NCBI RefSeq assembly: GCF_058153355.1
Contig: NZ_CM177019.1
Reading direction: 5' to 3' (one strand)
Length of the DNA: 64,000 nt
In this document: positions 3,861-63,292 of the stretch, in pieces
How the letters are laid out: each line of letters begins with the position of its first letter
Numbering within the stretch: the first letter of the stretch is position 1
Program-made: the position numbers and the translations under genes
Notes under the pieces: generated by a model
The model's input: only the letters and a program-made list of their open reading frames with translations
Database searches by the model: none
What the model was told of the DNA's origin: nothing

Positions 3861-4078
3861 GAAACCATCCTTCATTTCAGCGCGTGTATAAAACGCGCCC
3901 ACTGAACTGCACCGCCCAACATTGAGCGGGCAGCGTAAAAACCAATACAGAATTGATACCTGGATGATATCAAATATCCAGTCTTAAATTGTGGCCTTTA
4001 GCGGAAAAATGAAAACATATGCTACAGAATGGCGCTCATCACGCCATTCTTCGCGGTTAATTCAGTAATTTTTCAGAA

Positions 4079-5056
4079 TTATGCCCGGTCAACGCTAAAG
4101 GCGATGACTTCAGCCAGTGTCTCCGCGCCCAGCGCCAACATCACCAGACGATCAACGCCTAATGCCACGCCGGAACAGTCAGGCATACCGACTTTCAAGG
4201 CTTCAATAAGATTCTGGTCAATGGGGTGCTGCGGCAAACCGCGCGCCGCGCGCTTACGGTTATCTTGTTCAAAACGTTGTTGCTGCTCACGGGCATCCGT
4301 CAATTCATGGAAACCATTCGCCAGCTCAATACCTTTATAATAAACCTCAAAGCGTTCAGCGACCCGATGATCTTCGGTACTGATTTGCGCCAGTGATGCC
4401 TGGCTGGCCGGAAAGTGGTACACAAAGGTCGGTTTTTCTTTGCCAATATTTGGCTCTACGCCAAAGGTAAACAGCAGTTGTAACAGCGTGTCGCGGTCTT
4501 CTTCGGTATCGGCAACGTTGCTCAAATCCAGTTTCGCTGCCACTTCCCGCAGTTGCGTTTTGTCGGCAGAGAGCGGGTCAATTTCCAGATAACGCAAGAA
4601 AGCTTGTTGATAAGAAAGACTTTCTGCTGCCGGGCAGTCCAGCACCTGTTGCAAGAGATCGTCCACCTCGTTCATCAACCGGTACATATCATAGTGCGGT
4701 CGATACCACTCCAGCATAGTGAATTCAGGGTTGTGATAACGCCCCATCTCTTCATTACGGAAGCTGCGACACAGCTGGAAAACCGGCCCACAACCGGCAA
4801 CCAGCAGGCGTTTCATATGGTATTCCGGGCTGGTCATTAACCAGAGATTCATCCCCTGCGAATGCCCGGGGCCAACGAAACGCGTCTCAAACGGGACCAA
4901 ATGAATATCGGTTACCGTCGCCTGGCTCATACAAGGCGTCTCCACCTCCAGCACTCCACGATCGGCAAAGAAACGACGGATCTCCGCCATAATCGCCGCG
5001 CGTTTTAATAAGTTAGGAATGGATGCGCTCGGCTGCCAGGATGCCGTTTCGCTCAT
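4079..5056 (-). CDS. epmA: EF-P lysine34 (R)-beta-lysine ligase EpmA (PoxA/YjeA), 325 aa
   Basis: [30 protein letters not shown]… class II LysRS-like catalytic core; ORF-track frame trimmed to the internal Met. Confidence 0.93.
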
Positions 5057-19057: not shown

Positions 19058-20494
19058 ATGTCAAACAACATTCGTATCGAAGAAGATCTGTTGGGTACCA
19101 GGGAAGTTCCAGCTGATGCCTACTATGGTGTTCACACTCTGAGAGCGATTGAAAACTTCTATATCAGCAACAACAAAATCAGTGATATTCCTGAATTTGT
19201 TCGCGGTATGGTAATGGTTAAAAAAGCCGCAGCTATGGCAAACAAAGAGCTGCAAACCATTCCTAAAAGTGTAGCGAATGCCATCATTGCCGCATGTGAT
19301 GAAGTCCTGAACAACGGAAAATGCATGGATCAGTTCCCGGTAGACGTCTACCAGGGCGGCGCAGGTACTTCCGTAAACATGAACACCAACGAAGTGCTGG
19401 CCAATATCGGTCTGGAACTGATGGGTCACCAGAAAGGTGAATATCAGTACCTGAACCCGAACGACCATGTTAACAAATGTCAGTCCACTAACGACGCCTA
19501 CCCGACCGGTTTCCGTATCGCAGTTTACTCTTCCCTGATTAAGCTGGTAGATGCGATTAACCAACTGCGTGAAGGCTTTGAACGTAAAGCTGTCGAATTC
19601 CAGGACATCCTGAAAATGGGTCGTACCCAGCTGCAGGACGCAGTACCGATGACCCTCGGTCAGGAATTCCGCGCTTTCAGCATCCTGCTGAAAGAAGAAG
19701 TGAAAAACATCCAACGTACCGCTGAACTGCTGCTGGAAGTTAACCTTGGCGCAACAGCAATCGGTACTGGTCTGAACACGCCGAAAGAGTACTCTCCGCT
19801 GGCAGTGAAAAAACTGGCTGAAGTCACTGGCTTCCCATGCGTACCGGCTGAAGACCTGATCGAAGCGACCTCTGACTGCGGCGCTTATGTTATGGTTCAC
19901 GGCGCGCTGAAACGCCTGGCTGTGAAGATGTCCAAAATCTGTAACGACCTGCGCTTGCTCTCTTCTGGTCCACGTGCCGGCCTGAACGAGATCAACCTGC
20001 CGGAACTGCAGGCGGGCTCTTCCATCATGCCAGCTAAAGTAAACCCGGTTGTTCCGGAAGTGGTTAACCAGGTATGCTTCAAAGTCATCGGTAACGACAC
20101 CACTGTTACCATGGCAGCAGAAGCAGGTCAGCTGCAGTTGAACGTTATGGAGCCGGTCATTGGCCAGGCTATGTTCGAATCCGTTCACATTCTGACCAAC
20201 GCTTGCTACAACCTGCTGGAAAAATGCATTAACGGCATCACTGCTAACAAAGAAGTGTGCGAAGGTTACGTTTACAACTCTATCGGTATCGTTACTTACT
20301 TGAACCCGTTCATCGGTCACCACAACGGTGACATCGTGGGTAAAATCTGTGCCGAAGCCGGTAAGAGTGTACGTGAAGTCGTTCTGGAACGCGGTCTGTT
20401 GACTGAAGCGGAACTTGACGATATTTTCTCCGTACAGAATCTGATGCACCCGGCTTACAAAGCAAAACGCTATACTGATGAAAGCGAACAGTAA
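19058..20494 (+). CDS. aspA: Aspartate ammonia-lyase AspA (478 aa)
   Basis: [30 protein letters not shown]…; fumarase/aspartase signature [10 protein letters not shown]. Confidence 0.98.
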
Positions 20495-32681: not shown

Positions 32682-34199
32682 ATGTCTGAACGAGAAACAC
32701 GGGGAGCCAATGAGGCTATTGATTTTAACGATGAACTGAGAAATCGCCGCGAAAAACTGGCGGCACTGCGTCAGCAAGGTGTGGCGTTTCCTAATGATTT
32801 TCGCCGCGACCATACCTCTGACCAGTTGCACGAAGAGTTTGATGCGAAGGATAACCAGGAACTGGAATCCTTAAACATTGAAGTCTCGGTTGCTGGCCGA
32901 ATGATGACCCGTCGTATCATGGGGAAAGCCTCCTTTGTAACGTTGCAGGATGTCGGTGGCCGTATTCAACTGTACGTTGCACGAGATAGCCTGCCAGAAG
33001 GTGTTTATAACGATCAGTTTAAAAAATGGGACCTCGGCGACATTATCGGTGCCCGCGGTACGCTGTTTAAGACGCAAACTGGTGAGCTTTCCATTCACTG
33101 TACTGAGTTACGCCTGCTGACTAAGGCACTGCGTCCATTGCCGGATAAATTCCATGGCTTACAGGATCAGGAAGTCCGTTATCGTCAACGTTATCTGGAC
33201 CTCATCGCTAACGATAAATCCCGTCAAACGTTTGTTGTCCGTTCAAAAATTCTGGCCGCTATCCGTCAGTTCATGGTCGCTCGCGGTTTTATGGAAGTAG
33301 AAACCCCAATGATGCAGGTAATTCCAGGTGGGGCATCTGCTCGCCCGTTTATTACCCATCATAATGCTCTGGATTTGGATATGTACCTGCGTATTGCGCC
33401 GGAGCTATATCTGAAACGTCTGGTTGTAGGTGGTTTTGAACGGGTATTCGAAATCAACCGTAACTTCCGTAATGAAGGTATTTCTGTTCGTCATAATCCT
33501 GAGTTCACGATGATGGAACTCTACATGGCGTATGCGGATTACCACGATTTGATTGAACTGACGGAATCACTGTTCCGCACTCTGGCACAAGAGGTACTGG
33601 GTACCACTAAAGTCACTTATGGCGAGCATGTGTTTGATTTCGGCAAACCGTTTGAAAAACTCACCATGCGCGAAGCAATCAAAAAATATCGTCCAGAAAC
33701 CGATATGGCGGACCTGGATAATTTTGATGCTGCTAAAGCATTAGCTGAATCTATCGGAATTACGGTAGAGAAAAGCTGGGGGCTGGGACGCATTGTCACG
33801 GAGATCTTTGATGAAGTGGCAGAAGCACATCTGATTCAGCCAACCTTTATCACGGAATATCCGGCAGAAGTGTCACCGCTGGCGCGCCGTAATGATGTTA
33901 ACCCGGAAATCACCGACCGTTTTGAATTCTTCATCGGTGGTCGTGAAATCGGTAATGGTTTTAGCGAATTAAACGACGCAGAAGATCAGGCTGAACGTTT
34001 CCAGGAACAGGTTAACGCTAAAGCTGCAGGTGACGACGAAGCCATGTTCTATGACGAAGATTACGTGACTGCGCTGGAATATGGTCTGCCGCCAACCGCG
34101 GGTCTGGGTATTGGTATCGACCGAATGATTATGCTGTTTACTAACAGTCATACTATTCGCGACGTTATTCTCTTCCCGGCGATGCGTCCACAGAAATAA
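32682..34199 (+). CDS. lysU: Lysyl-tRNA synthetase, heat-inducible isoform LysU (505 aa)
   Basis: [33 protein letters not shown]…; class II aaRS motifs; assigned to lysU rather than lysS by synteny with cadA/dtpC. Confidence 0.95.
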
Positions 34200-34317: not shown

Positions 34318-34423
34318 CTAAAAGAGAGAAAAAAGTAATGCCACAGGCAGGCTCATTGGCCAGGTTATTCCGACCAGGAATGCACTAAGTAAACGAATAT
34401 GTGTTTTCTCATGTGAGATAAAC
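34318..34423 (-). pseudogene. ghoT: ghoT 3' fragment (codons ~24-57 plus stop) separated from its 5' part by the IS66-family insertion
   Basis: Minus-strand translation …SHEKTHIRLLSAFLVGITWPMSLPVALLFSLF* continues in frame from the fragment at 36893-36968 once the IS and one copy of the 8-bp duplication are removed. Confidence 0.85.
34416..34423. repeat. Target-site duplication AGATAAAC (left copy) of the IS66-family insertion
   Basis: Identical 8-mer directly flanks both ends of the element (34416-34423 and 36893-36900). Confidence 0.9.
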
Positions 34424-34498
34424 GTAAGCGTCTTATCAGGACCGTCTGGCAAATTCCCGATGCTTTGGACAAAGTATCCACCACTAAATTAATAGTGG

Positions 34499-34927
34499 GT
34501 GATAAAAATGTCAGATATACAAAAAAATGCCTCTCCGGGAAGGCCTAAAGGGTGCCTGAATTATCCTCCTGAATTCAAACAACGACTCATAGAAGCATCA
34601 TTCCAGCCAGGTGTTTCAATTTCCAGACTGGCCCTGGACAATGGTATTAATGCCAATCTGTTGTTCAAATGGCGTCAGAAATGGCGGCAGGGGAAGATAA
34701 AATTGCCATCATCAGAATCAGGCAGAGAATCTCAGTTAATTCCTGTCACTATTGATGCCCAACTCCCAACTGCTCCGGCTAATGAGCCACTGACCGCAAG
34801 ACCGTCAGTAACACCGGAAATACACAGCATCTCCTGTGAGATTACGTTCAGAAACGGCACCCTTCGGTTGAACGGGGCAGTGAATGAAAATCTGCTGTCC
34901 TTGCTTATACAGGAGCTGAGACGGTGA
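34499..34927 (+). CDS. tnpA: IS66-family accessory protein TnpA (OrfA)
   Basis: 142-aa ORF MIKMSDIQKNASPGRPKGCLNYPPEFKQRLIEASFQPGVSISRLALDNGINANLLFKWRQKWRQG… (HTH-like); the true start may be the Met at 34508. Confidence 0.85.
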   Translation: MIKMSDIQKNASPGRPKGCLNYPPEFKQRLIEASFQPGVSISRLALDNGINANLLFKWRQKWRQGKIKLPSSESGRESQLIPVTIDAQLPTAPANEPLTARPSVTPEIHSISCEITFRNGTLRLNGAVNENLLSLLIQELRR

Positions 34928-35271
34928 TATCTCTCCCTGCAGGTTCGCGTATCTGGCTGGTTGCAGGTATCACCGATATGCGAAATGGCTTTAACGGCCT
35001 GGCCTCAAAAGTTCAGAACGTCCTGAAGGATGACCCGTTCTCCGGGCATCTGTTCATCTTCCGCGGACGCCGGGGTGACCAGATAAAAGTGTTGTGGGCT
35101 GACAGTGACGGACTGTGCCTCTTCACCAGACGCCTGGAGCGGGGCCGCTTCGTCTGGCCGGTCACCCGTGACGGCAAGGTGCACCTTACTCCGGCCCAGT
35201 TATCCATGCTTCTTGAGGGCATCGACTGGAAACACCCGAAACGAACGGAACGCGCTGGCATCCGCATATAA
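34924..35271 (+). CDS. tnpB: IS66-family TnpB (OrfB)
   Basis: 115-aa ORF MISLPAGSRIWLVAGITDMRNGFNGLASKVQNVLKDDPFSGHLFIFRGRRGDQIKVLWADSDGLCLF…; GTG start overlapping tnpA stop by 4 bp. Confidence 0.85.
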   Translation: MISLPAGSRIWLVAGITDMRNGFNGLASKVQNVLKDDPFSGHLFIFRGRRGDQIKVLWADSDGLCLFTRRLERGRFVWPVTRDGKVHLTPAQLSMLLEGIDWKHPKRTERAGIRI

Positions 35272-35290
35272 CCCGTTGTAAAGTGAGGAT

Positions 35291-36862
35291 ATGGACACCT
35301 CACTTGCTCATGAGAATGCCCGCCTGCGGGCACTGTTGCAGACGCAACAGGACACCATCCGCCAGATGGCGAAATACAACCGCCTGCTCTCACAGCGGGT
35401 GGCGGCTTATGCTTCCGAAATCAACCGGCTGAAGGCGCTGGTTGCAAAACTGCAGCGCATGCAGTTCGGTAAAAGCTCAGAAAAACTTCGTGCAAAAACC
35501 GAACGGCAGATACAGGAAGCACAGGAGCGAATCAGCGCTCTTCAGGAAGAAATGGCGGAAACGCTGGGTGAGCAATATGACCCGGTACTGCCATCTCCCC
35601 TGCGCCAGTCTTCAGCCCGTAAACCGTTACCTGCCTCACTTCCCCGTGAAACCCGGGTCATCCGTCCGGAAGAGGAATGCTGCCCGGCCTGTGGTGGCGA
35701 ACTCAGTTCTCTGGGATGTGATGTGTCAGAGCAACTGGAGCTTATCAGCAGCGCCTTTAAGGTTATCGAAACACAACGTCCGAAACTGGCCTGTTGCCGG
35801 TGCGACCATATCGTGCAGGCTCCGGTGCCTTCAAAACCCATTGCACGCAGTTATGCCGGAGCGGGGCTTCTGGCCCATGTTGTCGCTGGAAAATATGCAG
35901 ACCATCTGCCGTTATACCGCCAGTCAGAAATATACCGTCGTCAGGGCGTGGAGCTGAGCCGTGCCACACTGGGGCGCTGGACAGGTGCTGTTGCTGAACT
36001 GCTGGAACCGCTGTATGACATCCTGCGCCAGTATGTGCTGATGCCCGGTAAAGTCCATGCCGATGATATCCCCGTTCCGGTCCAGGAGCCGGGCAGCGGT
36101 AAAACAAGGACTGCCCGGCTGTGGGTCTACGTTCGTGATGACCGTAACGCCGGTTCGGAAATGCCTCCGGCGGTCTGGTTCGCGTACAGCCCGGACCGGA
36201 AAGGTATCCATCCACAGAATCATCTGGCCGGTTACAGCGGAGTGCTTCAGGCCGATGCTTACGGTGGTTACCGGGCGTTGTACGAATCCGGCAGAATAAC
36301 GGAAGCCGCATGTATGGCTCATGCCCGGAGAAAAATCCACGATGTGCATGCAAGAGTGCCCACCGACATCACCACGGAAGCCCTGCAGCGTATCGGTGAA
36401 CTGTATGCCATCGAGGCAGAGGTCCGGGGCTGTTCAGCAGAACAGCGTCTGGCGGCAAGAAAAGCCAGAGCCGCGCCACTGATGCAGTCACTGTATGACT
36501 GGATACAGCAACAGATGAAAACACTGTCGCGTCACTCGGACACGGCAAAAGCGTTCGCATACCTGCTGAAACAGTGGGATGCACTGAACGTGTACTGCAG
36601 TAATGGCTGGGTGGAAATCGACAACAACATCGCAGAGAACGCCTTACGGGGAGTGGCCGTAGGCCGGAAAAACTGGCTCTTCGCGGGTTCTGACAGCGGT
36701 GGTGAACATGCTGCGGTGTTGTACTCGCTGATCGGCACATGCCGTCTGAACAATGTGGAGCCAGAAAAGTGGCTGCGTTACGTCATTGAACATATCCAGG
36801 ACTGGCCGGCAAACCGGGTACGCGATCTGTTGCCCTGGAAAGTTGATCTGAGCTCTCAGTAA
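35291..36862 (+). CDS. tnpC: IS66-family DDE transposase TnpC
   Basis: 523-aa ORF with N-terminal coiled-coil/leucine-zipper region, Cys pairs CPACGG…CCRCDH and a DDE-type core. Confidence 0.88.
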
Positions 36863-36892
36863 ATATCAATACGGTTCTGGCGAGCCGCTTAC

Positions 36893-36900
36893 AGATAAAC
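36893..36900. repeat. Target-site duplication AGATAAAC (right copy) of the IS66-family insertion
   Basis: Identical to 34416-34423. Confidence 0.9.
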
Positions 36901-36968
36901 CAGATAATGACAAAGTATATGTTCACACCAATCACATAAAAAATTAATATTTTAGAGAATAGTGCCAT
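36893..36968 (-). pseudogene. ghoT: ghoT 5' fragment (start codon plus about 25 codons) truncated by the IS66-family insertion
   Basis: Minus-strand ATG at 36966-36968; MALFSKILIFYVIGVNIYFVIIWFI then reads straight into the IS right inverted repeat. Confidence 0.85.
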
Positions 36969-36995: not shown

Positions 36996-37292
36996 CTACT
37001 TGTAAAACTGACGGAAATAGTCATCAACTGTCATAATGTTGAGGTCAAAATCAATATCCGGTAAGTCTAAGCATTTGAGCCTGATTAAATCTTCGATTTC
37101 ACTTGCGGCTAACGATGTCGTTATTGCGAAGGAATTTTCATTCAATTGTCGTGGTATCCCATATTCATCAGCCACGATAGAGGAGAAATTCATATCATAC
37201 ATCAATGATCTTAACCTTAAGAACACTGAGGAATAAGATGATGGATAATCAAAAGAAACAACATAAGTATTGAACTTGTTTTTACCTTCCAT
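36996..37292 (-). CDS. ghoS: Type V antitoxin GhoS (YjdK), sequence-specific endoribonuclease, 98 aa
   Basis: MEGKNKFNTYVVSFDYPSSYSSVFLRLRSLMYDMNFSSIVADEYGIPRQLNENSF…; immediately upstream of ghoT on the same strand. Confidence 0.88.
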   Translation of the reverse strand: MEGKNKFNTYVVSFDYPSSYSSVFLRLRSLMYDMNFSSIVADEYGIPRQLNENSFAITTSLAASEIEDLIRLKCLDLPDIDFDLNIMTVDDYFRQFYK

Positions 37293-61865: not shown

Positions 61866-63170
<1,305 letters not shown>

Positions 63171-63200
63171 CATGCCTGCAATCTGGGAAACCGGGGTAGA

Positions 63201-63292
<92 letters not shown>

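Follow-up and report, generated by a model that had tools for sequence, protein, structure and literature searches.

The window analysed here, a 64,000-nucleotide stretch of contig NZ_CM177019.1 (assembly GCF_058153355.1), very probably carries a complete IS66-family insertion sequence, related to ISCro1 in a modular way, that entered the toxin gene ghoT by ordinary, recent transposition and split it, leaving the antitoxin gene ghoS intact. The evidence below establishes the anatomy of the element, its family assignment and its modular relationship to ISCro1, as well as the clean insertion and the resulting split of ghoT. An IS66-family element of 2,469 bp at 34424–36892 had been proposed from the letters of the window alone (the original prediction); all coordinates of that proposal held, and the three encoded proteins scored above the NCBIfam cut-offs.

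Anatomy of the element

The boundaries of the element were derived from a comparison of three copies: the copy in the window; a second one on an Escherichia coli draft contig (L004, GCA_047897835.1), 99.8% identical and located beside a serine-protease autotransporter gene; and a third, 95.9% identical, on the Escherichia albertii plasmid pESA135_1 (L002). The termini and the length were common to all three, whereas the perfect 8-bp duplications flanking them differed (AGATAAAC, CACCGGAC and GAATAAGG, respectively). Because three independent insertions thus shared identical termini and equal length next to different duplications, the boundaries can be regarded as fixed. The element and its parts are as follows.

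34424–36892, plus strand: complete IS66-family insertion sequence, 2,469 bp; termini shared by three independent insertions, segment missing from the collinear chromosome of E. coli EC42405
34416–34423, no strand: left copy of the target-site duplication, AGATAAAC; corresponds to the single copy at 20232–20239 of the EC42405 locus (L007)
36893–36900, no strand: right copy of the target-site duplication, AGATAAAC; from the sequence and the EC42405 alignment
34424–34445, plus strand: left inverted repeat (IRL), GTAAGCGTCTTATCAGGACCGT; 17/22 against the right repeat, identical in L004, in L002 and in a truncated chromosomal copy (L003)
36871–36892, minus strand: right inverted repeat (IRR), reverse complement GTAAGCGGCTCGCCAGAACCGT; 17/22 against IRL, 20/22 against the IRR of ISCro1
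34508–34927, plus strand: tnpA, accessory helix-turn-helix protein, 139 aa (142 aa from GTG 34499); NF047595, and PF01527 on the identical L004 protein
34924–35271, plus strand: tnpB, IS66-type accessory protein, 115 aa; NF033819, and PF05717 on the identical L004 protein
35291–36862, plus strand: tnpC, DDE transposase, 523 aa, uninterrupted; NF033517, and Pfam domains on the identical L004 protein

Exact alignment bore out the imperfect 22-bp inverted repeats of the original prediction. Read inward, GTAAGCGTCTTATCAGGACCGT and GTAAGCGGCTCGCCAGAACCGT agree at 17 of 22 positions, including all of the first seven (GTAAGCG), and the random expectation for at least 17 identical positions is about 4e-7. 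IS66-family ends are said, after Han et al. 2001 and ISfinder, to be imperfect inverted repeats of about 20–30 bp starting with GTAAGCG, and both ends of the element conform to this pattern. The perfect 8-bp repeat that had been noticed at 34416–34423 and 36893–36900 was likewise recovered as AGATAAAC on either side (random expectation of 8/8 identity, about 1.5e-5), and since the ninth base differs, the duplication is exactly 8 bp long. A target duplication of 8 bp has been reported for IS66 (PMC6778807), and duplications of this length were found at the three insertions of the element as well as at one copy of ISCro1.

The three genes lie on one strand in the order tnpA-tnpB-tnpC that is typical of the family, with the stop codon of tnpA and the start codon of tnpB overlapping in GTGA. 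As to the gene triplet originally described, tnpB with 115 aa and a 4-bp overlap and tnpC with 523 aa stood unchanged, while tnpA needed revision. Its longest frame (34499–34927) encodes 142 aa from a GTG, but the identical public protein is annotated from the ATG at 34508 (139 aa), and a Shine-Dalgarno-like motif, GGTGA, can be read 5 nt upstream of this ATG. The 142-aa version is therefore best seen as a mechanical maximum, with 139 aa the likelier product. All three proteins were recognized by NCBIfam models: TnpA by NF047595 (IS66-like accessory protein TnpA; 88.8 bits, cut-off 74), TnpB by NF033819 (IS66_TnpB; 127.8 bits, cut-off 50) and TnpC by NF033517 (transpos_IS66; 479 bits, cut-off 180, profile positions 4–386 of 387). 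On the identical L004 proteins, Pfam assigned PF01527 (HTH_Tnp_1) to TnpA, PF05717 to TnpB, and PF13007, PF13005, PF03050 and PF13817 to TnpC. TnpA and TnpB thus qualify by NCBIfam and Pfam as accessory proteins of the IS66 family, and TnpC has, at profile level, the zinc-finger and DDE_Tnp_IS66 domains of an IS66-type DDE transposase. Its reading frame was checked for interruptions and found open over all 523 codons. Judged by these features, the element is complete and probably still active. We infer its current competence for transposition, of which several insertion sites with fresh duplications and the 99.8% identity between copies are an indirect sign. A scan for promoters and terminators across the element and its junctions yielded nothing above shuffled controls, so no claim is made on outward transcription or read-through.

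Insertion into ghoT

Aligned to the E. coli EC42405 chromosome, the whole 64-kb window proved collinear, with about 99% identity and structural differences at only two places. At the first of these, the alignment blocks end at 34423 and resume at 36893, overlapping by exactly 8 bp in the subject (L007 20232–20239). When the element and one copy of the repeat were removed, a single alignment of 40,451 bp to EC42405 was obtained. Searched with a 1-kb query, the rebuilt empty site proved contiguous in 5,251 of the 5,426 complete E. coli genomes; a 448-bp query gave 5,255 of 5,426. The latter set includes K-12 MG1655 (H136), whose uninterrupted site agrees with the earlier statement that the element is absent from this locus in K-12. 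In complete genomes the empty site is annotated ghoT/ghoS/lysS. The earlier proposal had named the lysU–ghoS region, which is correct as to the locus; it had overlooked, however, that the insertion falls within the reading frame of ghoT. The duplicated 8 bp fall within annotated ghoT of EC42405 (L007 20134–20307, minus strand), and the same holds for the locus L001. The genes around the insertion are the following.

32682–34199, plus strand: lysU (annotated lysS, lysine--tRNA ligase), intact left neighbour; from the list of open reading frames (ORFs) and annotated loci
34318–34423, minus strand: 3' fragment of ghoT, running from codon 23/24 through the stop codon and comprising the duplicated 8 bp; carries all of predicted transmembrane helix 2
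36893–36968, minus strand: 5' fragment of ghoT, codons 1–25 plus one base; continues into the element as a 61-aa ORF, 36783–36968
36996–37292, minus strand: ghoS, type V antitoxin endoribonuclease, 98 aa, intact; identical to GhoS of EC42405 (WP_000398619.1)

The arrangement is that of the GhoT/GhoS system, with ghoS (98 aa; the products in related loci match PF11080) directly upstream of ghoT (57 aa, PF10753) beside lysU, and it is collinear with that of annotated genomes. Here ghoT directly follows ghoS and faces lysU in convergent orientation, and ghoST and tnpABC are convergent as well. No NCBIfam model matched GhoT or GhoS. A 57-aa GhoT ORF, MALFSKILIFYVIGVNIYFVIIWFISHEKTHIRLLSAFLVGITWPMSLPVALLFSLF, is restored when the two fragments are put together with a single copy of the repeat; it differs from the common GhoT (WP_001173343.1) solely by S18Y (codon 18, window 36915–36917, minus strand). 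The exact rebuilt protein is on record elsewhere in intact form, with a match to PF10753 (Toxin_GhoT_OrtT), and S18Y occurs in intact ghoT on four unrelated contigs. Since the substitution is present in intact genes elsewhere, it represents a polymorphism rather than decay after inactivation. The four contigs are not close relatives of the window, because their flanks are only 97.4–98.0% identical to it.

The toxin GhoT (57 aa) damages membranes and is predicted to have two transmembrane helices; GhoS neutralises it via cleavage of ghoT mRNA, and the F38R exchange in helix 2 abolishes toxicity (PMC4344625). In the window, the 2,469-bp element breaks the toxin frame behind codon 25. As helix 2 is thereby separated from helix 1 and F38R in helix 2 alone suffices to abolish toxicity, the split GhoT is predicted to be inactive. 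The 61-aa product of the 5' fragment would consist of GhoT residues 1–25 followed by 36 element-encoded residues and keeps a hydrophobic helix; an exact-protein look-up for this chimera returned no record.

We propose that TnpC, assisted by TnpA and TnpB, joined the ends of the element to staggered cuts lying 8 bp apart in the target, and that fill-in of the gaps then left AGATAAAC at both sides. With ghoT as the target, the cut after codon 25 parts helix 2 from helix 1 and is predicted to inactivate the toxin, whereas ghoS and its upstream region are untouched. Because a toxin-antitoxin pair decays harmlessly when the toxin is lost and the antitoxin stays, an insertion of this kind should be tolerated, and we take it to have been selectively neutral. 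Positive selection of the ghoT knock-out, for example by removal of a self-damaging membrane toxin, is an unlikely alternative to such a neutral accident. It would fit the interruption of the toxin with sparing of the antitoxin, and loss does recur at low frequency, the ghoT locus giving no more than partial matches in 37 and split matches in at most 19 of 5,292 complete genomes. On the other hand, about 97% of complete genomes have an uninterrupted ghoT, which favours retention; the four known targets of the element and ISCro1 reveal no obvious sequence preference; and one event cannot demonstrate selection.

Age and distribution

We infer that the insertion into ghoT is recent and strain-specific. 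The original prediction had already read intact ends, ORFs and duplication as signs of a recent event, and the 99.8% identity to the L004 copy, together with the intact ORFs and duplication, supports the same view. Further support comes from searches of public collections, which comprised neither the source genome nor its relatives. No full-length copy of the element was present in the 5,426 complete E. coli genomes, and the closest genomes (99.2–99.6% identity) have the empty site. The exact LysU protein of the window is extremely common in the public record; when the same insertion was sought beside identical LysU, ghoT was intact in all 10 neighbourhoods listed (157 contigs read). The junction of ghoT and IRL had no match in metagenome contigs. 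The recency of the insertion is thus indicated by its absence beside identical LysU, by the lack of a full-length copy in complete E. coli genomes and by the unmatched junction. An old insertion that became fixed in an E. coli lineage appears decidedly improbable. Lineage-wide presence could have gone unseen, as the source genome and its relatives lie outside the searched collections; yet the flanking repeat is without mismatch, none of the three ORFs is damaged, the element is 99.8% identical to a copy located at an unrelated site, and the ghoT fragments are undecayed save for the one polymorphism that intact alleles also have. The missing full-length copies and the empty site in the closest genomes likewise speak against great age.

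Intact copies of the element are rare. The exact TnpC is present on a single other contig in the public record, and the tnpA/tnpB seam gave no match in species-representative genomes and none in metagenome contigs. A further copy with the same termini is found on the E. albertii plasmid pESA135_2 next to ccdAB (L046 1501–3969), where tnpC is annotated slightly longer (1,590 bp) and the 8-bp flanks, ATTTAACC and TTATGGGT, do not match. This suggests a rearrangement after insertion, presumably by recombination or deletion. In pESA135_1, the element is flanked by inverted copies of one Tn3-family transposase gene (WP_204620305.1; L002 1–2448 and 5632–8469).

Most public relatives of TnpA turned out to be one decayed remnant interrupted by IS3 (L006 4001–5389; L023–L042, about 4001–4420), to which the truncated chromosomal copy L003 has to be added. 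On E. coli plasmids of about 100 kb, the remnant directly follows a type IVb pilus operon; the operon is marked by cofI, annotated in L006, by PF21874 (CofJ) and by a prepilin peptidase, and the remnant has evidently been inherited with it. The TnpA variants P0002 and P0003, which occur on many contigs, do not represent extra active copies, because all of them trace to this decayed remnant.

Relation to ISCro1

ISCro1 belongs to the IS66 family, was first named in Citrobacter rodentium and is common in E. coli. As reference we used the copy in enterotoxigenic E. coli (ETEC) H10407 (L005 1270–3968; 2,699 bp; duplication TTACGGAT). Close relatives of the TnpC of the element carry the NCBI label 'IS66-like element ISCro1 family transposase', and at the DNA level tnpC is 96–97% identical to copies annotated as ISCro1-family. 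TnpB and TnpC are 98.3% identical in protein to those of ISCro1 and equal in length. Nevertheless, every strong match in the 5,426 complete E. coli genomes covered only bases 502–2469 of the element, and bases 1–501 (IRL and tnpA) gave no ISCro1 alignment in these genomes at megablast sensitivity. The right module, comprising tnpB, tnpC and the right end, reaches 96.95% DNA identity to ISCro1 and 95.4% to a full-length E. albertii homologue.

The left module presents a different picture. TnpA of ISCro1 has 225 aa compared to 139 aa here, with 47% identity over 117 residues. By hand count, IRL agrees with its ISCro1 counterpart at 15 of 22 positions, whereas IRR agrees at 20 of 22. The ends of ISCro1 start with GTAACCG and GTAAGCG, while the element starts with GTAAGCG at both, and tnpB begins with ATG in ISCro1 but with GTG here. 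The two elements share homology from the second base of the tnpB start codon onward (...GAGACGGTGATATCTC here versus ...CCACTGATGATATCTC in ISCro1), so that the switch between the modules sits exactly at the overlap of the tnpA stop and the tnpB start. Because the left end and tnpA differ and the switch coincides with this overlap, the element can be described from its sequence as a modular relative of ISCro1, and it is neither ISCro1 itself nor ISEc8 or ISEc23. Compared with other IS66 elements, TnpA and TnpB showed identity pairs of 69%/76% and 38%/71%. As the two values track each other there, the incongruence between TnpA and TnpB is specific to the comparison with ISCro1; these identity comparisons give only a hint that the long TnpA of ISCro1 may be the outlier. 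The next-closest tnpC relative, H179 (about 85%), is truncated and lacks tnpA.

That the element is merely a copy or isoform of ISCro1 is very unlikely. The near-identical TnpB and TnpC and the NCBI label would suit such an assignment. According to ISfinder convention, the same element reportedly requires about 95% or more DNA identity over the full length and at least 98% transposase identity. TnpC does attain 98.3%, but bases 1–501 cannot be aligned, TnpA differs in both sequence and size, the lengths are 2,469 and 2,699 bp, and IRL is divergent.

Tentatively, and with rather less confidence than the modular relationship itself commands, one could go further and regard the element as an as yet unnamed IS66 member that arose by a natural module swap, combining tnpB, tnpC and the right end of ISCro1 type with a different left end and a short tnpA, and that is still transposing. 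If true, a transposase of this family would be able to function with a TnpA and left end of heterologous origin, and the element and ISCro1 would form a natural pair for working out recognition by the poorly understood TnpA.

Separately, the five differences between the element and the L004 copy all fall within 94 bp of tnpB (35046–35139), and none alters the protein. At each of them, one of the two alleles agrees with ISCro1 or with the E. albertii copy. This patch looks like a short gene conversion between IS66 copies, not like scattered point mutations. The clustering of the tnpB differences, together with the right module being nearer to ISCro1 than to the E. albertii homologue, gives a hint of continuing exchange between co-resident IS66 copies.

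Assessment and implications

An assembly artefact, in which a repeat had been misplaced in the lysU–ghoS interval, is extremely improbable: insertion sequences often cause misassembly, but a misjoin would produce no exact 8-bp repeat, and removal of the segment would not restore the ghoT frame and a 40-kb alignment. A few points do weigh against the reading that a complete relative of ISCro1 inactivated ghoT by simple transposition. The element may already carry a name. Not every copy is a simple insertion, because the flanks of the copy on pESA135_2 are unmatched. The fusion peptide encoded by the 5' fragment could retain some membrane activity or residual toxicity, since single-helix peptides can be membrane-active. 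Finally, both the activity of the element and the phenotype of the strain are deduced from sequence features.

The findings are of use chiefly for correct annotation, and besides as a small natural experiment on IS66 modularity and toxin-antitoxin decay. In annotation, the locus should be given as a toxin pseudogene, ghoT::IS, accompanied by an orphan ghoS, and not as an intergenic insertion; a label of ISEc8 or ISEc23 would be wrong for the element. With its toxin gene split and its antitoxin gene kept, the locus is a clean case from nature of how a toxin-antitoxin pair decays in the tolerated direction, and the strain is a natural ghoT knock-out for studies of GhoT-dependent stress or persistence. 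From the sharp boundary relative to ISCro1 comes a small but usable indication that, in the IS66 family, TnpA is passed on together with the left end.

The second structural difference between the window and EC42405 concerns another element, a 1,278-bp insertion (61949–63226) in the intergenic region of yjdM and yjdN. It lies between REP-like sequences with a 2-bp junction overlap and contains a 326-aa ORF (62141–63121, plus strand) that scored 253 bits on NF033542 ('IS110 family RNA-guided transposase'). Its DNA is 97.7–99.6% identical to copies annotated as IS621-family.

Comparison with known systems

Of the relatives that had been suggested in the original prediction, ISEc8 was rejected because the DNA of tnpC is only about 68% identical. 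ISEc23 was rejected as well, with about 65% over 19% of the gene, 38% identity for TnpA and 69% for TnpB. The guess of an ISEc8/ISEc23-like element consequently had to be abandoned in favour of ISCro1-family copies, with their far higher tnpC identity. ISEc22 is similarly distant (tnpC DNA, about 69%). All three are nonetheless IS66-family elements of E. coli and resemble the element in gene layout and in their short TnpA of about 133–141 aa.

IS66 and IS679 are the founding and best-characterised members of the IS66 family. The element shares with them the tnpA-tnpB-tnpC layout, repeats starting with GTAAGCG and the 8-bp duplication, a likeness drawn from these features. In IS679, all three ORFs are reportedly required for transposition (Han et al. 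2001).

In comparison with the GhoT/GhoS system of E. coli K-12, the window has the same locus, lysU | ghoT-ghoS | yjdJ, and its GhoS is identical to the annotated protein, whereas its ghoT is split after codon 25 and ghoS is left as an orphan antitoxin gene. With respect to ISCro1, the 8-bp duplication, the right end, tnpB and tnpC are held in common, and the left end, tnpA and total length set the two apart. The insertion is ordinary transposition by a known family, carried out by an uncommon relative of ISCro1, and it leaves current understanding unchanged.

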